Source of the DNA: Escherichia coli
GTDB taxonomy: Bacteria > Pseudomonadota > Gammaproteobacteria > Enterobacterales > Enterobacteriaceae
NCBI RefSeq assembly: GCF_011045215.1
Contig: NZ_CP049201.1
DNA: 64,000 nt
Direction: 5' to 3' (one strand)
Each line of letters opens with the position of its first letter. Position 1 is the stretch's first letter. The notes below the pieces were generated by a model. It searched no databases and was not told the DNA's origin. It was given only the letters and a program-made list of their open reading frames with translations. The translations under genes and the position numbers were made by a program. Positions 1 to 10,684 of the stretch are shown here, piece after piece.

Positions 1-1408
1 CATTAGGATAGTAATGGTCGATCATGTAACGCGAATTTAACTGTGTCGCGACCAGAGCATCAAGTTCACCTTCCTTGACCTTGTGAAATGCAGCGCTGGC
101 GTTATCGACTTTTATCCACTCTACCTCCGGATACATCTCTTTTAATTGCGAATGAAGCTCATAATAATATGGAATGGCAACTTTCATTCCTTTTTTTAAT
201 GTTTGTTCACTGTCAGGCGCTTTTTGCATGACAAAAACGTAAGGCGTTGTTATGAAGGCTTCAGCAAATAAAACATTATTTTCTCTATCTTCACTATAAA
301 TAGCACCGGGTAATATATCCCATCCGCCGGGATTCAGCTGTGTTCCAGCATGGATATTGTGTGAAACGGTGATCGGAGAAAAATTTAAACCTGTTTGCAA
401 AGTAATAATATTAAGAATATCCCCCATAACGCCCCGAACCGAGCCATTTTCATCCGTCATAGAATAGGGAGGAGAGTAAGGATTTTCCAGCACCTTTAAA
501 TCGGGATGCTGCTTAATCCACTGTTTTTCATGTTCAGTGAGTTCTAATGGTTTGTTCAGAAAGGCCAGGTTTCCTGTATCAAGCCAATTTTGTGATACTT
601 CATAGCGAACTTCATTTGTTAAAGCATCAACAAATCGATTGAGTACTTCATTAAGAACGACAGATTCTTTTCTGGTCAAGAAAAAATTATATTGACGCGG
701 TGAGTTATAATATTTCACTACATTTAAGGAGTGAGTGAAATAGCGGGAAATCATACTGCTGGTAATGATGTTACTACCAATAAAGTAATCATTCTGTCCG
801 GCTGAGACGGATGCTAATGCCTGATATAAATTTGTAAAAGAGATAATTGTTGCTTTTGGAAATGATTGATGAATTACCTCGTCAGGGGGATAATTTGCTA
901 CTCGAGCAATATTTACTGGTTTTGATGAGGTAAGCGGTCGCATTGAATCGTGAAGGGTGGTGACCAGCGCCGGAAAGGTAATTATCAGTGGTTTGGTTGC
1001 AGCAATGTCATCATTAAGAGGCGGCGAAGTAACTAAATGTGATAACACTATATCGACTTCACCTTCTTCCAGCGCGTCCATTGCTTTTTGATGATCGGCG
1101 TATTCCCGGAGTGTTAATTTGATATTTAACGCTCTTTTTAAAAGATTTAAATAATCAGCATTAATACCACGAACCCGTTGCTGCGAATCGGTATGCAACA
1201 ACGTAGCCGTTTGGGACTTATGTACTGCAATCACAAGATTTTTTTTGCTCGCTAACCAACGTAATTCCTTGTTGCTCAGACGTAGTGGATCAAGTGTGAC
1301 ACGGTTGTTACTACTGATGCCACGATATTCGATGTAATCTTCGTCTGCGAAACTTATGGTCGACCAAAGACCACAACAGAGAAGAAAAATATAGGGTAAA
1401 AACTTCAT
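1..1408 (-). CDS. evgS: Sensor histidine kinase EvgS, N-terminal periplasmic portion (partial; 3' end lies beyond window start)
   Basis: Reverse-strand frame open to window edge; start ATG at 1408 gives MKFLPYIFLL..., matching recalled EvgS N-terminus; sits 5 bp downstream of evgA as in the evgAS operon. Confidence 0.88.
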   Translation of the reverse strand, partial: MKFLPYIFLLCCGLWSTISFADEDYIEYRGISSNNRVTLDPLRLSNKELRWLASKKNLVIAVHKSQTATLLHTDSQQRVRGINADYLNLLKRALNIKLTLREYADHQKAMDALEEGEVDIVLSHLVTSPPLNDDIAATKPLIITFPALVTTLHDSMRPLTSSKPVNIARVANYPPDEVIHQSFPKATIISFTNLYQALASVSAGQNDYFIGSNIITSSMISRYFTHSLNVVKYYNSPRQYNFFLTRKESVVLNEVLNRFVDALTNEVRYEVSQNWLDTGNLAFLNKPLELTEHEKQWIKQHPDLKVLENPYSPPYSMTDENGSVRGVMGDILNIITLQTGLNFSPITVSHNIHAGTQLNPGGWDILPGAIYSEDRENNVLFAEAFITTPYVFVMQKAPDSEQTLKKGMKVAIPYYYELHSQLKEMYPEVEWIKVDNASAAFHKVKEGELDALVATQLNSRYMIDHYYPN

Positions 1409-1412
1409 GTGG

Positions 1413-2027
1413 TTAGCCGATTTTGTTACGTTGTGCGAATGTGTAAAGATCCATCAGTGATTTACATTCTAATTTTTCCATCAGGCGACTTTTATAAGTG
1501 CTGACAGTTTTGTTGCTGATGAACATTTTTTCAGCAATGTCATTATTATCCTTGCCATCAAGAATATAGCGCATGACACTAATTTCTTGTTTCGATAAGG
1601 AGTCGAGTTTTTGCTGGTCGGACGTTAAACTTCCAACAAACCGGTTGAGAGAGAAGGGGAAATAGCAGTAGCCATTTTTTGCAGCTTCAATAGCCGCAAT
1701 GATATTGTTCATGCCTTCTTTTTTACTCACGAAACCATTAGCGCCAGCATCAGCACAATGTTTCCCGTAAAAATGGTCATTTTTAGCGGAGACGATAATA
1801 ATAATTCCGCTATATTGGCGCTTCCTCAGCGTTTCTAACACCTGGATACCGTTAACTCCGGGGATATCGACATCAATGATGACGATATCAGGCTTAAGTG
1901 TTTCCACCCGCTGAACGGCACTTCCGCCTTCAGTCAACTCTGCTAAGATTTCAATATCGTTTTTGATCAATAAATTACGAATTGCTGCGATAGCAAGAGG
2001 ATGGTCATCAATAATTATTGCGTTCAT
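1413..2027 (-). CDS. evgA: Response regulator EvgA (NarL/LuxR family)
   Basis: 204-aa ORF with receiver domain and C-terminal LuxR-type HTH; matches recalled EvgA; divergent from emrK. Confidence 0.93.
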   Translation of the reverse strand: MNAIIIDDHPLAIAAIRNLLIKNDIEILAELTEGGSAVQRVETLKPDIVIIDVDIPGVNGIQVLETLRKRQYSGIIIIVSAKNDHFYGKHCADAGANGFVSKKEGMNNIIAAIEAAKNGYCYFPFSLNRFVGSLTSDQQKLDSLSKQEISVMRYILDGKDNNDIAEKMFISNKTVSTYKSRLMEKLECKSLMDLYTFAQRNKIG

Positions 2028-2251
2028 AGATTATTCCCTTTGCAATGAAGCATCTCCCTTCTCCCTGTAGTAATACAGACATAAGGCATCATCTCATTTT
2101 CTCAATAAAAATAAGAAAATTTGAGCTTCCTTTAAGATAATTCGACAAGTATACCATATAAATAGTCGGCATATATGAAATGTCAACAATAAAATCAGGG
2201 ATTATACCGATGATTTATAGTTTCACATTAGCACTATAAGTCTTCTCACTA

Positions 2252-2270
2252 ATCCTACAGGCGTAAGAAT
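2252..2270. promoter_or_regulatory. Candidate EvgA box in the evgA-emrK divergent promoter region
   Basis: Imperfect inverted repeat ATCCTACAGGCGTAAGAAT resembling the recalled EvgA consensus; located in the 415-bp AT-rich intergenic region. Confidence 0.3.
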
Positions 2271-2442
2271 TGTATTGCAAAAGCCACGGTTTAGTCCTCT
2301 GTTGTTTTTTTTGCACCTCATTTAAATTAGGCCTCCAACGTTCCTGGGATAATGTGCAACACATGCACTGTGTTTGATATGAAGAATGAATACTCTTTTC
2401 ATTCAATTCATAAATTTCATCTATGCGAAATGAGAGATAATA

Positions 2443-3606
2443 GTGGAACAGATTAATTCAAATAAAAAACACTCTAACAGAAGAAAATACTTTTCTTTAT
2501 TGGCGATAGTTTTATTTATTGCGTTTTCAGGTGCTTATGCCTATTGGTCAATGGAATTAGAAGACATGATTAGTACAGATGACGCCTATGTCACGGGGAA
2601 TGCAGATCCAATTTCTGCACAAGTCTCAGGTAGTGTCACTGTCGTTAATCATAAAGATACGAACTACGTTCGACAGGGTGACATTTTAGTTTCACTGGAT
2701 AAAACTGATGCCACTATCGCACTCAATAAAGCTAAAAATAATCTGGCAAATATTGTTCGGCAAACGAATAAACTGTACTTACAGGATAAACAATACAGTG
2801 CCGAAGTCGCTTCAGCACGTATTCAGTATCAACAATCTTTAGAAGATTATAACCGTCGTGTGCCTTTAGCGAAGCAGGGGGTTATTTCAAAAGAAACGCT
2901 GGAGCATACCAAAGATACGTTAATAAGTAGCAAAGCGGCATTGAATGCCGCTATCCAGGCTTATAAAGCGAATAAAGCTTTAGTAATGAACACACCATTA
3001 AACCGTCAGCCACAAGTCGTTGAAGCTGCGGATGCAACCAAAGAAGCCTGGTTGGCGCTTAAACGTACGGATATTAAGAGTCCGGTTACCGGCTATATTG
3101 CCCAGCGAAGTGTTCAGGTCGGCGAAACAGTGAGTCCCGGACAATCGTTAATGGCTGTCGTACCAGCACGTCAAATGTGGGTTAATGCCAACTTTAAAGA
3201 AACACAACTCACGGATGTACGGATTGGTCAATCGGTCAATATTATCAGCGATCTTTATGGTGAGAATGTTGTGTTTCATGGCCGGGTGACAGGGATCAAT
3301 ATGGGAACCGGCAATGCGTTCTCCTTATTACCTGCACAAAATGCGACAGGGAACTGGATCAAAATCGTTCAGCGTGTACCGGTTGAAGTTTCTCTTGATC
3401 CAAAAGAACTCATGGAACACCCCTTGCGCATTGGTTTATCGATGACTGCAACTATTGATACGAAGAACGAAGACATTGCTGAGATGCCTGAGCTGGCTTC
3501 AACCGTGACGTCCATGCCGGCTTATACCAGTAAGGCTTTAGTTATCGATACCAGTCCGATAGAAAAAGAAATTAGCAACATTATTTCGCATAATGGACAA
3601 CTTTAA
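2443..3606 (+). CDS. emrK: Multidrug efflux membrane fusion protein EmrK
   Basis: 387-aa ORF, EmrA-like periplasmic adaptor with N-terminal membrane anchor; 1-bp overlap with emrY. Confidence 0.92.
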   Translation: MEQINSNKKHSNRRKYFSLLAIVLFIAFSGAYAYWSMELEDMISTDDAYVTGNADPISAQVSGSVTVVNHKDTNYVRQGDILVSLDKTDATIALNKAKNNLANIVRQTNKLYLQDKQYSAEVASARIQYQQSLEDYNRRVPLAKQGVISKETLEHTKDTLISSKAALNAAIQAYKANKALVMNTPLNRQPQVVEAADATKEAWLALKRTDIKSPVTGYIAQRSVQVGETVSPGQSLMAVVPARQMWVNANFKETQLTDVRIGQSVNIISDLYGENVVFHGRVTGINMGTGNAFSLLPAQNATGNWIKIVQRVPVEVSLDPKELMEHPLRIGLSMTATIDTKNEDIAEMPELASTVTSMPAYTSKALVIDTSPIEKEISNIISHNGQL

Positions 3607-5144
3607 TGGCAATCACTAAATCAACTCCGGCACCATTAACCGGTGGGACGTTATGGTGCGTCACTATTGCATTGTCATTAGCGACGTTTATGCAAATGTT
3701 GGATTCCACTATTTCTAACGTCGCAATACCGACAATATCTGGCTTTCTGGGAGCATCAACAGACGAAGGCACCTGGGTTATCACCTCGTTTGGCGTAGCA
3801 AATGCCATTGCTATCCCTGTTACCGGCAGGCTGGCACAAAGAATAGGCGAATTAAGGTTATTTTTACTTTCAGTCACTTTTTTTTCGCTGTCTTCCTTAA
3901 TGTGTAGTTTATCGACCAATCTTGATGTGCTGATATTTTTTAGAGTCGTTCAGGGGTTAATGGCAGGGCCGTTAATTCCACTGTCACAGAGTTTATTATT
4001 AAGGAATTATCCACCAGAAAAAAGAACATTTGCTCTGGCATTATGGTCAATGACCGTGATTATCGCTCCGATATGTGGGCCGATATTGGGCGGTTATATT
4101 TGTGATAACTTTAGCTGGGGTTGGATATTTTTAATCAATGTCCCTATGGGGATTATCGTCCTGACATTATGCTTAACCTTACTTAAAGGAAGAGAAACTG
4201 AGACTTCACCGGTCAAAATGAATCTACCAGGACTGACCCTGTTAGTGCTCGGTGTTGGTGGCTTGCAAATTATGCTTGATAAAGGGCGCGATCTGGATTG
4301 GTTCAACTCGAATACAATAATAATATTAACAGTAGTATCAGTTATTTCTCTGATCTCTTTAGTCATTTGGGAGTCGACCTCAGAGAACCCGATTCTTGAT
4401 CTCAGTTTGTTTAAGTCCCGTAATTTCACCATTGGTATTGTGAGTATCACATGCGCGTATTTATTTTACTCTGGAGCGATCGTCCTTATGCCGCAGTTAC
4501 TCCAGGAAACGATGGGGTATAATGCGATATGGGCCGGACTTGCTTATGCGCCCATCGGCATCATGCCACTATTAATTTCACCTTTGATAGGACGTTATGG
4601 CAACAAAATAGACATGCGGGTGTTGGTGACATTCAGTTTTTTGATGTATGCGGTTTGCTATTACTGGCGTTCTGTGACATTTATGCCAACGATTGATTTT
4701 ACAGGTATCATTTTGCCGCAGTTTTTTCAGGGATTCGCCGTTGCCTGTTTCTTTTTACCCTTAACAACGATTTCGTTTTCAGGCTTGCCAGATAATAAAT
4801 TTGCCAATGCCTCGAGTATGAGTAATTTTTTTCGTACCTTGTCAGGATCAGTTGGTACGTCGTTGACAATGACGCTGTGGGGACGACGCGAATCGTTACA
4901 CCATAGTCAGTTGACAGCAACCATCGATCAATTTAACCCCGTGTTTAATTCATCGTCACAAATTATGGATAAATACTATGGTTCGCTTTCAGGAGTTCTT
5001 AATGAAATTAATAATGAAATAACCCAGCAGTCACTTTCTATTTCTGCAAATGAGATTTTCCGTATGGCGGCTATTGCTTTTATCTTACTTACGGTTTTGG
5101 TTTGGTTTGCGAAACCGCCGTTTACAGCGAAAGGCGTTGGGTGA
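3606..5144 (+). CDS. emrY: MFS multidrug efflux pump EmrY
   Basis: 512-aa ORF, 14-TMS MFS (EmrB-like); translationally coupled to emrK. Confidence 0.92.
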   Translation: MAITKSTPAPLTGGTLWCVTIALSLATFMQMLDSTISNVAIPTISGFLGASTDEGTWVITSFGVANAIAIPVTGRLAQRIGELRLFLLSVTFFSLSSLMCSLSTNLDVLIFFRVVQGLMAGPLIPLSQSLLLRNYPPEKRTFALALWSMTVIIAPICGPILGGYICDNFSWGWIFLINVPMGIIVLTLCLTLLKGRETETSPVKMNLPGLTLLVLGVGGLQIMLDKGRDLDWFNSNTIIILTVVSVISLISLVIWESTSENPILDLSLFKSRNFTIGIVSITCAYLFYSGAIVLMPQLLQETMGYNAIWAGLAYAPIGIMPLLISPLIGRYGNKIDMRVLVTFSFLMYAVCYYWRSVTFMPTIDFTGIILPQFFQGFAVACFFLPLTTISFSGLPDNKFANASSMSNFFRTLSGSVGTSLTMTLWGRRESLHHSQLTATIDQFNPVFNSSSQIMDKYYGSLSGVLNEINNEITQQSLSISANEIFRMAAIAFILLTVLVWFAKPPFTAKGVG

Positions 5145-6597: not shown

Positions 6598-6816
6598 TTA
6601 GATGATAAATGACAGCAGGAATGTGCCCGCCAGAGCGACGACTGAAGCGATAAATGTCGCTGTCGTATAGTATTTAAATGTTTCATTGAGCGTAGCGCCG
6701 CAATATTGCTTCACCAGCCAGAAAAGCGAGTCCGTAACGATCGTGCAGCCAATCGCGCCTGAACCGATAGCAATCGCAATAATTTCCGGGATGATGTCGG
6801 GATACAGCGGCAGCAC
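6598..6816 (-). pseudogene. dsdX: Remnant of D-serine permease dsdX (only about 72 C-terminal codons retained)
   Basis: 72-aa hydrophobic ORF directly upstream of dsdA, matching the C-terminus of a GntP-family permease; similarity ends near 6820 where the csc sequence begins. Confidence 0.75.
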
Positions 6817-7046
6817 AATGATCCATATTTATATTTTCTTCTCCAGGTTGGCGATGCCAGTTGGCATGTTTTACTTACTTGCCTATATGGTTACTCGTTG
6901 GCGAGAACAGAGGCGGAATTGGGGACAATTGTCCGGGAATTATTGTTATTTTTTATTGTATTGCCGTGTCAGGTGATAGGGCGTTGGATCTCGCCAGTGA
7001 CGTCTGTTTCTGCTACAGTGCCCGTTTTACGGCAAACGGCTTGGGT

Positions 7047-8042
7047 ATGGCTTCATTAAAGGATGTCGCACGCCTGGCGGGAGTGTCGATGATGACAGTC
7101 TCCCGGGTGATGCATAATGCAGAATCTGTGCGTCCTGCAACGCGTGACCGCGTATTGCAGGCAATCCAGACCCTGAATTATGTTCCTGATCTTTCCGCCC
7201 GTAAGATGCGCGCTCAAGGACGTAAGCCGTCGACTCTCGCCGTGCTGGCGCAGGACACTGCTACCACTCCTTTCTCTGTTGATATTCTGCTTGCCATTGA
7301 GCAAACCGCCAGCGAGTTCGGCTGGAATAGTTTTTTAATCAATATTTTTTCTGAAGATGACGCTGCCCGCGCGGCACGTCAGCTGCTTGCCCACCGTCCG
7401 GATGGCATTATCTATACTACAATGGGGCTGCGACATATCACGCTACCCGAGTCTCTGTATGGTGAAAATATTGTATTGGCGAACTGTGTGGCGGATGACC
7501 CAGCGTTACCCAGTTATATCCCTGATGATTACACTGCACAATATGAATCAACACAGCATTTGCTCGCGGCGGGCTATCGTCAACCGTTATGCTTCTGGCT
7601 ACCGGAAAGTGCGTTGGCAACAGGGTATCGTCGGCAGGGATTTGAGCAGGCCTGGCGTGATGCTGGACGAGATCTGGCTGAGGTGAAACAATTTCACATG
7701 GCAACAGGTGATGATCACTACACCGATCTCGCAAGTTTACTCAATGACCACTTCAAATCGGGCAAACCAGATTTTGATGTTCTGATATGTGGTAACGATC
7801 GCGCAGCCTTTGTGGCTTATCAGGTTCTCCTGGCTAAGGGGGTACGTATCCCGCAGGATGTCGCCGTAATGGGCTTTGATAATCTGGTTGGCGTCGGGCA
7901 TCTTTTTTTACCGCCGCTGACCACAATTCAGCTTCCACATGACATTATCGGGCGGGAAGCTGCATTGCATATTATTGAAGGTCGTGAAGGGGGAAGTGTG
8001 ACGCGGATCCCTTGCCCGCTGTTGATCCGTTGTTCCACCTGA
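7047..8042 (+). CDS. cscR: Sucrose operon repressor CscR (LacI/GalR family)
   Basis: N-terminal HTH MASLKDVARLAGVSMMTVSRV then periplasmic-binding-like domain; start chosen at internal ATG 7047 (331 aa) rather than ORF-track 6861. Confidence 0.85.
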   Translation: MASLKDVARLAGVSMMTVSRVMHNAESVRPATRDRVLQAIQTLNYVPDLSARKMRAQGRKPSTLAVLAQDTATTPFSVDILLAIEQTASEFGWNSFLINIFSEDDAARAARQLLAHRPDGIIYTTMGLRHITLPESLYGENIVLANCVADDPALPSYIPDDYTAQYESTQHLLAAGYRQPLCFWLPESALATGYRRQGFEQAWRDAGRDLAEVKQFHMATGDDHYTDLASLLNDHFKSGKPDFDVLICGNDRAAFVAYQVLLAKGVRIPQDVAVMGFDNLVGVGHLFLPPLTTIQLPHDIIGREAALHIIEGREGGSVTRIPCPLLIRCST

Positions 8043-8049
8043 TATTATG

Positions 8050-9483
8050 TTAACCCAGTTGCCAGAGTGCTCCATGTTGCACCACAGCCACTCCGTGGGA
8101 GGCATAAAGCGACAGTTCCCGTTCTTCTGGCTGCGGATAGATTCGACTACTCATCACCGCTTCCCCGTCGTTAATAAATACTTCCACGGATGATGTATCG
8201 ATAAATATCCTTAGGGCGAGCGTGTCACGCTGCGGGAGGGGAATACTACGGTAGCCGTCTAAATTCTCGTGTGGGTAATACCGCCACAAAACAAGTCGCT
8301 CAGATTGGTTATCAATATACAGCCGCATTCCAGTGCCGAGCTGTAATCCGTAATGTTCGGCATCACTGTTCTTCAGCGCCCACTGCAACTGAATCTCAAC
8401 TGCTTGCGCGTTTTCCTGCAAAACATATTTATTGCTGATTGTGCGGGGAGAGATAGATTGATGCTGCTGGCGTAACGACTCAGCTTCGTGTACCGGGCGT
8501 TGTAGGAGTTTGCCATTGCTCTCTGATAGCTCGCGCGCCAGCGTCATGCAGCCTGCCCAGCCTTCACGTTTTGAGGGCATTGGCGATTCCCACATATCCA
8601 TCCAGCCGATAACAATACGCCGACCATCCTTCGCTACAAAGCTTTGTGGTGCATAAAAGTCATGCCCGTTATCAAGTTCAGTAAAATGCCCGGATTGTGC
8701 AAAAAGTCGTCCTGGCGACCACATTCCGGGTATTACGCCACTTTGAAAGCGATTTCGGTAACTGTATCCCTCGGCATTCATTCCCTGCGGGGAAAACATC
8801 AGATAATGCTGATCGCCAAGGCTGAAAAAGTCCGGACATTCCCACATATAGCTTTCACCCGCATCAGCGTGGGCCAGTACGCGATCGAAAGTCCATTCAC
8901 GTAATGAACTGCCGCGATAAAGCAGGATCTGCCCCGTGTTGCCTGGGTCTTTCGCCCCGACTACCATCCACCATGTGTCGGCTTCACGCCACACTTTAGG
9001 ATCGCGGAAGTGCATGATTCCTTCTGGTGGAGTGAGGATCACACCCTGTTTCTCGAAATGAATACCATCCCGACTGGTAGCCAGACATTGTACTTCGCGA
9101 ATTGCATCGTCATTACCTGCACCATCGAGCCAGACGTGTCCGGTGTAGATAAGTGAGAGGACACCATTGTCATCGACAGCACTACCTGAAAAACACCCGT
9201 CTTTGTCATTATCGTCTCCTGGCGCTAGCGCAATAGGCTCATGCTGCCAGTGGATCATATCGTCGCTGGTGGCATGTCCCCAGTGCATTGGCCCCCAGTG
9301 TTCGCTCATTGGGTGATGTTGATAAAACGCGTGATAACGATCGTTAAACCAGATCAGGCCGTTTGGATCGTTCATCCACCCGGCAGGAGGCGCGAGGTGA
9401 AAATGGGGATAGAAAGTGTTACCCCGGTGCTCATGAAGTTTTGCTAGTGCGTTTTGCGCCGCATGCAATCGAGATTGCGTCAT
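8050..9483 (-). CDS. cscA: Sucrose-6-phosphate hydrolase / invertase CscA (GH32)
   Basis: GH32 N-terminal motif WMNDPNG and overall match to recalled CscA; start taken at MTQSRL (ORF-track start 9492 also possible). Confidence 0.88.
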   Translation of the reverse strand: MTQSRLHAAQNALAKLHEHRGNTFYPHFHLAPPAGWMNDPNGLIWFNDRYHAFYQHHPMSEHWGPMHWGHATSDDMIHWQHEPIALAPGDDNDKDGCFSGSAVDDNGVLSLIYTGHVWLDGAGNDDAIREVQCLATSRDGIHFEKQGVILTPPEGIMHFRDPKVWREADTWWMVVGAKDPGNTGQILLYRGSSLREWTFDRVLAHADAGESYMWECPDFFSLGDQHYLMFSPQGMNAEGYSYRNRFQSGVIPGMWSPGRLFAQSGHFTELDNGHDFYAPQSFVAKDGRRIVIGWMDMWESPMPSKREGWAGCMTLARELSESNGKLLQRPVHEAESLRQQHQSISPRTISNKYVLQENAQAVEIQLQWALKNSDAEHYGLQLGTGMRLYIDNQSERLVLWRYYPHENLDGYRSIPLPQRDTLALRIFIDTSSVEVFINDGEAVMSSRIYPQPEERELSLYASHGVAVVQHGALWQLG

Positions 9484-9517
9484 TTTAATCATCCTGGTTA
9501 AGCAAATTTGGTGAATT

Positions 9518-9593
9518 GTTAACGTTAACTTTTATAAAAATAAAGTCCCTTACTTTCATAAATGCGATGAATATCACAAATGTTAACGTTAAC
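9518..9593. promoter_or_regulatory. Two copies of the perfect 12-bp palindrome GTTAACGTTAAC in the cscA-cscK divergent promoter region; candidate CscR operators
   Basis: Palindromes at 9518-9529 and 9582-9593 in an AT-rich 206-bp intergenic region; LacI-family operators are typically palindromic. Confidence 0.45.
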
Positions 9594-9698
9594 TATGACA
9601 TTTTGTGATCGAATATGCATGTTTTAGTTAATCCATGACGATTTTGCGAAAAAGAGGTTTATCACTATGCGTAAGTCAGATGAATTTAAGGGAAAAAA

Positions 9699-10613
9699 AT
9701 GTCAGCCAAAGTATGGGTTTTAGGGGATGCGGTAGTAGATCTCTTGCCAGAATCAGACGGGCGCCTACTGCCTTGTCCTGGCGGCGCGCCAGCTAACGTT
9801 GCGGTGGGAATCGCCAGATTAGGCGGAATAAGTGGGTTTATAGGTCGGGTCGGTGATGATCCTTTTGGTGCATTAATGCAAAGAACGCTGCTAACTGAGG
9901 GAGTCGATATCACGTATCTGAAGCAAGATGAATGGCACCGGACATCCACGGTGCTTGTCGATCTGAACGATCAAGGGGAACGTTCATTTACGTTTATGGT
10001 CCGCCCCAGTGCCGATCTTTTTTTAGAGACGACAGACTTGCCCTGCTGGCGACATGGCGAATGGTTACATCTCTGTTCAATTGCGTTGTCTGCCGAGCCT
10101 TCGCGTACCAGCGCATTTACTGCGATGACGGCGATCCGGCATGCCGGAGGTTTTGTCAGCTTCGATCCCAATATTCGTGAAGATCTATGGCAAGACGAGC
10201 ATTTGCTCCGCTTGTGTTTGCGGCAGGCGCTACAACTGGCGGATGTCGTCAAGCTCTCGGAAGAAGAATGGCGACTTATCAGTGGAAAAACACAGAACGA
10301 TCGGGATATATGCGCCCTGGCAAAAGAGTATGAGATCGCCATGCTGTTGGTGACTAAAGGTGCAGAAGGGGTGGTGGTCTGTTATCGAGGACAAGTTCAC
10401 CATTTTGCTGGAATGTCTGTGAATTGTGTTGATAGCACGGGGGCGGGAGATGCGTTCGTTGCCGGGTTACTCACAGGTCTGTCCTCTACGGGATTATCTA
10501 CAGATGAGAGAGAAATGCGACGAATTATCGATCTCGCTCAACGTTGCGGAGCGCTTGCAGTAACAGCGAAAGGGGCAATGACAGCGCTGCCATGTCGACA
10601 AGAACTGGAATAG
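9699..10613 (+). CDS. cscK: Fructokinase CscK (ribokinase/pfkB family)
   Basis: 304-aa ORF with pfkB-family motifs (GGAPANVA near N-terminus, DSTGAGDAF near C-terminus). Confidence 0.88.
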   Translation: MSAKVWVLGDAVVDLLPESDGRLLPCPGGAPANVAVGIARLGGISGFIGRVGDDPFGALMQRTLLTEGVDITYLKQDEWHRTSTVLVDLNDQGERSFTFMVRPSADLFLETTDLPCWRHGEWLHLCSIALSAEPSRTSAFTAMTAIRHAGGFVSFDPNIREDLWQDEHLLRLCLRQALQLADVVKLSEEEWRLISGKTQNDRDICALAKEYEIAMLLVTKGAEGVVVCYRGQVHHFAGMSVNCVDSTGAGDAFVAGLLTGLSSTGLSTDEREMRRIIDLAQRCGALAVTAKGAMTALPCRQELE

Positions 10614-10684
10614 TGAGAAGTAAATGGCGAAGTCGCTCTTATCTCTAAATAGGACGTGAATTTTTTAACGACAGGCAGGTAATT

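Follow-up and report, generated by a model that had tools for sequence, protein, structure and literature searches.

The evgA-emrK intergenic region

In Escherichia coli the response regulator gene evgA and the efflux operon emrKY diverge from a common spacer. This arrangement raises the question of where in the spacer EvgA acts, and whether it acts from there on emrKY only or on its own operon as well. We examined a 64,000-nucleotide stretch of an E. coli genome (the window), which begins inside evgS and continues with evgA, a spacer of 415 bp, emrK and emrY. A sequence-only reading of this DNA had placed a candidate EvgA box in the spacer. The flanking genes are:

1413-2027, minus strand: evgA, response regulator (Pfam Response_reg and GerE; RefSeq annotation), encoding the protein expected to read the box
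2443-3606, plus strand: emrK, membrane-fusion subunit of the EmrKY-TolC efflux pump, predicted to be activated from the box (RefSeq annotation, 100% identical genome)
3606-5144: emrY, directly after emrK

The cognate regulator, with a GerE/LuxR-type helix-turn-helix, is encoded by the neighbouring evgA, and evgS lies upstream. The evgA product has 204 aa, with a receiver domain and a GerE/LuxR helix-turn-helix (Pfam), and it matches the PDB entries for EvgA, 5F64 and 8ZWN, over essentially its full length (E ~1e-132). Its closest solved relatives other than EvgA are NarL (1A04, E = 5.5e-23) and RcsB (5O8Y). The emrK product is a HlyD-type membrane-fusion protein of 387 aa with Pfam HlyD/CusB-type domains. 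The spacer itself (2028-2442) has 33.5% G+C, compared with 50.7% for the window. Over 2.3 kb the locus is 100% identical to that of E. coli O125ac:H10 strain C 236-04A, and the evgA-emrK locus was found in 5,381 of 5,426 complete E. coli genomes.

We judged an RNA element in the spacer to be unlikely. An Rfam search of positions 1900-2600 with E values up to 1 returned no family, and the fold of the predicted emrK leader was ordinary, no better than that of shuffled sequences (z = -0.44).

An EvgA-type dyad in the spacer

The 19-mer picked out by the sequence-only reading, ATCCTACAGGCGTAAGAAT, is present at 2252-2270 in the 415-bp AT-rich spacer, as had been claimed. The functional register is one base shorter, an 18-mer of 8-2-8 architecture, and T2270, the nineteenth base, falls outside the dyad:

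2252-2269, no strand assigned: EvgA box, 18-bp dyad ATCCTACA-GG-CGTAAGAA

Read in the orientation of evgA, the box is TTCTTACG-CC-TGTAGGAT. It had been described as an imperfect inverted repeat, and this description proved weak in one sense and informative in another. The self-complementarity of the box is not above chance, with 5/8 arm pairs complementary and 1,773 of the 63,983 18-mers in the window equally good, and because of this pairing we rejected the reading of the site as a cruciform or structural inverted repeat. The same 18 bp are informative when compared with the EvgA consensus. That consensus, TTCYTACA-NN-TGTARGAA, is an 18-bp inverted-repeat motif attributed to Masuda & Church 2003 and Itou 2009; its validation here is by its behaviour on K-12 promoters only. 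Compared with TTCYTACANNTGTARGAA, the box has 2 mismatches and agrees at 14/16 specified positions.

We considered whether the dyad could be a chance match in AT-rich intergenic DNA, with EvgA acting elsewhere in the spacer. The poor arm pairing would fit such a match, as would the number of single half-sites TTCYTAC in the window, 8 where 8.9 are expected. Since half-sites occur at chance frequency, however, the information lies in the dyad, and the dyad is not at chance frequency: the box is the sole match with 2 or fewer mismatches on both strands of the 64 kb, where shuffles give an expectation of 0.03, and this single match precedes a gene already known to be targeted by EvgA. The remaining 18-mers of the spacer do not come within 6 mismatches of the consensus. 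We also built a position weight matrix from five other K-12 sites (ydeP, safA, yfdX, frc and yegR), leaving the box out. This matrix ranked the box first of ~64,000 window positions, with 18.7 bits against 9.4 for the runner-up, some 9 bits above the rest of the window, and a mean of -27.9. Together with the substitutions in a divergent genome described below, these results make a chance match very improbable.

A further half-site-like sequence adjoins the box:

2243-2249, plus strand: half-site-like heptamer TTCTCAC, 2 nt upstream of the box; polymorphic, relevance doubtful

In K-12 this heptamer is an exact TTCTTAC, making a direct repeat with the left half-site. The polymorphism is at alignment column 220, with C in the window and most strains and T in K-12.

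The sites of related regulators offer two comparisons. BvgA/BvgS of Bordetella corresponds to EvgA/EvgS of E. coli, and the BvgA sites are inverted heptads like TTTCCTA at the fha, bvg and ptx promoters. They have the same half-site core (TTCCTA/TTCTTA) as the EvgA box, bound by a GerE-type dimer on an inverted repeat. BvgA promoters typically carry arrays of several dimers reaching down to the -35 region, whereas emrK has one dyad and at most one extra half-site, the polymorphic heptamer at 2243-2249. NarL belongs to the same protein family as EvgA and uses 7-2-7 heptamer pairs, so that its two half-sites stand 2 bp apart as in the EvgA box. The half-sites themselves differ (TACYYMT for NarL, TTCYTACA for EvgA), and no NarL-type heptamer pair was evident in the box.

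These family ties bear on whether the dyad might be read by another NarL/FixJ-family regulator, such as RcsB or NarL/NarP, instead of or besides EvgA. The GerE helix-turn-helix is common to the family, NarL and RcsB are the next-closest solved relatives, and TAAGAAT at 2264-2270 resembles the left half of an RcsAB box. By sequence reading, however, the right half of the RcsAB box is absent, and the full 18-bp pattern is specific to EvgA-induced promoters. Moreover, emrKY and ydeP share no known regulator but EvgA (PMC8174306). We think it very improbable that another family member reads this dyad, though marginally less so than a chance match.

Neither the consensus nor the sequence of the site had a relevant match in a full-text literature search. 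Judged by its sequence, 2252-2269 is the EvgA box, namely the already-described evgA-emrK copy, and is ordinary for the locus.

EvgA boxes at other K-12 promoters

When we applied the consensus to K-12 MG1655, exactly one site with 0-2 mismatches was found upstream of each of ydeP, safA, yfdX, frc, yegR and evgA/emrK. The upstream regions of ydeO, gadE and mdtE in K-12 had no site with 0-2 mismatches, their best having 6-7. The next best sites in the scanned K-12 regions had 5-7 mismatches, the one exception being a further yfdX site with 3 mismatches. Masuda & Church 2003 reportedly speak of "six upstream regions" with the motif in their abstract, a figure that the six K-12 regions picked by the consensus reproduce. 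The evgA-emrK copy belongs to the published EvgA sites.

The boxes at ydeP, safA-ydeO, yfdX, frc (yfdW) and yegR have the same 8-2-8 dyad as the emrK box, with 0-2 mismatches each. Within this set of six, the evgA-emrK box is the least perfect, jointly with ydeP (2 mismatches), and has the lowest matrix score, its 18.7 bits comparing with 21.6-28.0 for the others. One of its mismatches is the outermost base of a half-site, and the second is innermost in the opposite half-site. Among the six, this copy alone is flanked by the regulator's own gene.

Conservation of the box

The sequence-only reading had suggested comparing the candidate with the K-12 site. In the alignment, the box of K-12 MG1655 (2483513-2483530, equivalent to window 2252-2269) is base-for-base identical to that of the window, while the spacer as a whole differs at 11 of 415 positions, 0 of them in the box. 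This identity, and the match to the dyad common to EvgA-activated promoters, bear out the earlier identification of an EvgA box between the divergent evgA and emrK, and also the remark that it is ordinary for the locus, an already known feature.

We extended the alignment to 11 Escherichia sequences: the window, K-12, eight sampled E. coli genomes and one divergent species representative, L006, the GTDB species-representative genome labelled E. coli SCPM-O-B-8794. Three box columns vary among them, and all consensus-matching positions are invariant. One varying column lies in the N2 spacer, where a single strain differs. The remaining two coincide with the non-consensus positions, and both change to the consensus base in L006, giving a perfect-consensus box TTCTTACACCTGTAGGAA (L006 1256-1273) in a spacer ~12% diverged from that of the window, which argues against a chance match. 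About 15% of columns are variable, so 14 invariant columns would be expected ~10% of the time. Because E. coli diversity is shallow, we regard conservation as supporting and not decisive.

On a larger scale, we searched the 5,426 E. coli genomes by megablast with two adjoining 60-bp segments. The segment holding the box and the predicted -10 (2240-2299) was found in 5,378 of them. With the same megablast setting, the segment on the evgA side, 2180-2239, was recovered in 1,468/5,426, fewer because it is highly polymorphic. This segment separates the box from the evgA promoters and is a hot spot of polymorphism.

A scan of genome contigs with a degenerate evgA 5' pattern gave only four loci, one of them a probable contaminant and none of them from E. 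albertii or E. fergusonii. In Klebsiella pneumoniae ATCC 13883 (L008, 1175-1192) and Buttiauxella sp. B2 (L009, 4244-4261), an evgA-like gene is accompanied by an identical 18-mer, TTCCTACAGCTGTCATCC. This 18-mer has one good EvgA-type half-site and lies ~170 bp (L008) and 296 bp (L009) upstream of the evgA-like gene; apart from it, the two spacers barely align. TTCCTACAGCTGTCATCC may be an operator of the KvgA-type regulator. A 398-bp contig of a Rhizobium cauense assembly (L007, NZ_JAEUAT010000078.1) holds an evgA 5' end with an E. coli-like leader, TTCTCCCTGTAGTAATAC, as at window 2060-2077, and is probably E. coli contamination of that assembly.

Proposed geometry of the emrK promoter

The box precedes the emrK start codon by 182.5 bp, and so lies upstream of an operon reported to depend on EvgA (PMC8174306, PMC5706723, PMC6393483). 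Direct binding of EvgA to the emrKY promoter, with activation, has been described (PMC5706723; Kato 2000, as PMC8174306 cites that work), and in a Shigella evgA deletion mutant emrK-gfp was without induction (PMC6393483). That EvgA activates emrKY, as the sequence-only reading had stated, accordingly stands on published work.

To place the box relative to the promoter, we anchored the six EvgA-target promoters on their boxes, each oriented towards the activated gene. The five K-12 boxes and the emrK box present the same orientation-independent palindrome at the same distance from T and C columns on the target-gene side, the invariant columns after the box being T at nt 26, C at nt 27 and T at nt 31. 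The hexamers at nt 21-26 include TATAAT at yegR, TTTAGT at emrK, CAGAGT at ydeP and ACCAGT at safA, while L006 has at emrK a better -10-like hexamer, TTTAAT. On this alignment we predict:

2290-2295, plus strand: -10-like hexamer TTTAGT of emrK, from the box-anchored alignment

If nt 21-26 are the -10 element, the box would span -50 to -33 (centre -41.5) and the emrK start would lie at ~2302, with 2300-2310 plausible. The apparently constant distance from the box to a promoter-like hexamer points to promoter-proximal, class II-like activation of emrKY. We only infer this geometry, with the exact start, the position at -41.5 and the RNA polymerase contact, because most of the hexamers at nt 21-26 are poor as -10 elements (CAGAGT, ACCAGT, CTCTCT; A at -11 in 2/6), because ydeP/safA and yfdX/frc look pairwise related in the spacing alignment, and because a second candidate promoter exists. 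This is the conserved extended -10-like TGGGATAAT at 2345-2353, which would put the box near -100.

Directly after TGGGATAAT there is an inverted repeat, GTGCA-ACACA-TGCAC (2354-2368), with a T-rich tail, which a scan flagged as terminator-like. In L006 one stem pair changes from C, G to A, T, a compensatory-looking substitution, and there is a 1-nt deletion besides. For the whole of 2345-2368 there are three candidate roles: another emrK promoter, a hairpin in the leader, or a site for a different protein.

A generic sigma-70 promoter scan found none on the emrK side. Its sole plus-strand hit, 2166-2195, was discounted as at or below shuffle expectation. The start list of Kim 2012 holds nothing for emrK and has one odd start 613 bp upstream of evgA.

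Taking 2290-2295 as the -10 element, we propose the following course of activation. EvgS, activated under aerobic conditions by mild acidity and alkali metals, would phosphorylate EvgA. An EvgA dimer would then bind with its two GerE-type helix-turn-helix domains to the half-sites ATCCTACA and the complement of CGTAAGAA, adjoining or covering the -35 region of a weak emrK promoter with the -10-like TTTAGT. Standing in place of a -35 element in a class II-like manner, the dimer would recruit RNA polymerase, and emrK-emrY would be transcribed from ~2302. We consider it highly probable that 2252-2269 is the EvgA operator of the emrKY promoter.

An operator at this position would connect acid sensing through the EvgS/EvgA phosphorelay with the EmrKY-TolC efflux pump, a link already in the literature for K-12 and Shigella. 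In Shigella, this link has been reported to contribute to survival in macrophages (PMC6393483). Because the box is intact in the O125ac:H10-like strain studied here, emrKY should be EvgA-inducible there too. The box is real, correctly identified and already known, and it matters little beyond correct annotation. The apparently fixed distance from box to promoter in six regulon members bears on the question of autoregulation, as does the difference between an emrK side that is conserved and an evgA side that is hypervariable.

The evgA side of the spacer and autoregulation

Two features of the evgA side are needed to place the box relative to evgA transcription:

2024-2053, minus strand: evgL, intact leader ORF of 9 codons (MLHCKGNNL*) with its stop overlapping the ATG of evgA
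2148-2153, minus strand: putative evgA -10 hexamer TATACT, preceded by TGG (extended -10)

The K-12 annotation lists evgL as b4781; RefSeq genomes annotated by PGAP have nothing marked in the spacer. This leader ORF belongs to the same spacer as the box but lies outside it. It makes translation of evgA subject to repression by CsrA through coupling, and the evgA leader extends from -114 to +7 relative to the start codon, counted from a sigma-S start (PMC11210196). A 114-nt leader puts the evgA start at ~2141, in agreement with the extended -10 TGG-TATACT at 2153-2148, and the centre of the box at ~-119.5.

Besides activating emrKY, EvgA had been said in the sequence-only reading to autoregulate evgAS. 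This second part of the claim is contested: the papers conflict on it, and the position of the box is unfavourable. In its favour, the box lies within a region shared by the two divergent operons, and a review of work on EHEC states that phosphorylated EvgA activates evgS and evgA through positive autoregulation (PMC11644481). The evgA strand also reads TATAAT at 2206-2201 in the window and in O157, which would give a start at ~2194 and put the box at ~-66.5.

Several lines of evidence stand against the box working in both directions and also serving positive autoregulation of evgAS. The Utsumi/Eguchi group reports for K-12 that evgAS is not autoregulated (PMC8174306, citing Eguchi 2003), and EvgS levels were constant across inducing conditions (PMC8174306). 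In Shigella within macrophages, evgA expression was unchanged while emrK was induced (PMC6393483). With the evgA start of PMC11210196, the box lies ~119.5 bp upstream, a position that does not favour autoregulation, and the counterpart of nt 21-26 towards evgA, where the -10 would fall, is within the most polymorphic, hypervariable stretch of the spacer. As for the hypothetical promoter at 2206-2201, it has AATGTG where a -35 element would be, and we found no evidence for it. Given the conflicting papers and the unfavourable geometry, autoregulation is unproven, and we regard the box as primarily the operator of emrKY, probably acting little, if at all, directly on the main evgA promoter. A bidirectional operator is in our view unlikely, although it deserves more weight than the other alternatives considered here.

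The conflict in the literature, with no autoregulation in K-12 and autoregulation reported in EHEC, might itself stem from variation in the spacer. The hexamer at 2206-2201 is TATAAT in the window and O157 and TACAAT in K-12, and with the hot spot at 2180-2239 this makes lineage-dependent autoregulation conceivable. We nevertheless think it quite improbable that the operator is unidirectional in some lineages and bidirectional in others, albeit less far-fetched than a chance match or another regulator at the dyad.

Other observations in the window

The evgA-emrK region (window 1400-3700) was also present on ~20 plasmid records of the complete E. coli genome collection. These may reflect large chromosomal segments carried on plasmids, or mislabelling of assemblies.

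Farther along, within 6598-11936, dsdX is reduced to a 3' fragment (6598-6816), and a sucrose (csc) cluster stands in place of dsdC and the 5' part of dsdX. The features there are:

7047-8042: LacI-family regulator of the csc cluster
8050-9483: cscA, csc cluster
9699-10613: kinase of the csc cluster (the cluster also holds a truncated MFS transporter)
10956-11936: IS5-like ISKpn26 transposase, after the csc cluster

We take this replacement of dsdC and dsdX by csc genes to be a known arrangement in some E. coli lineages.
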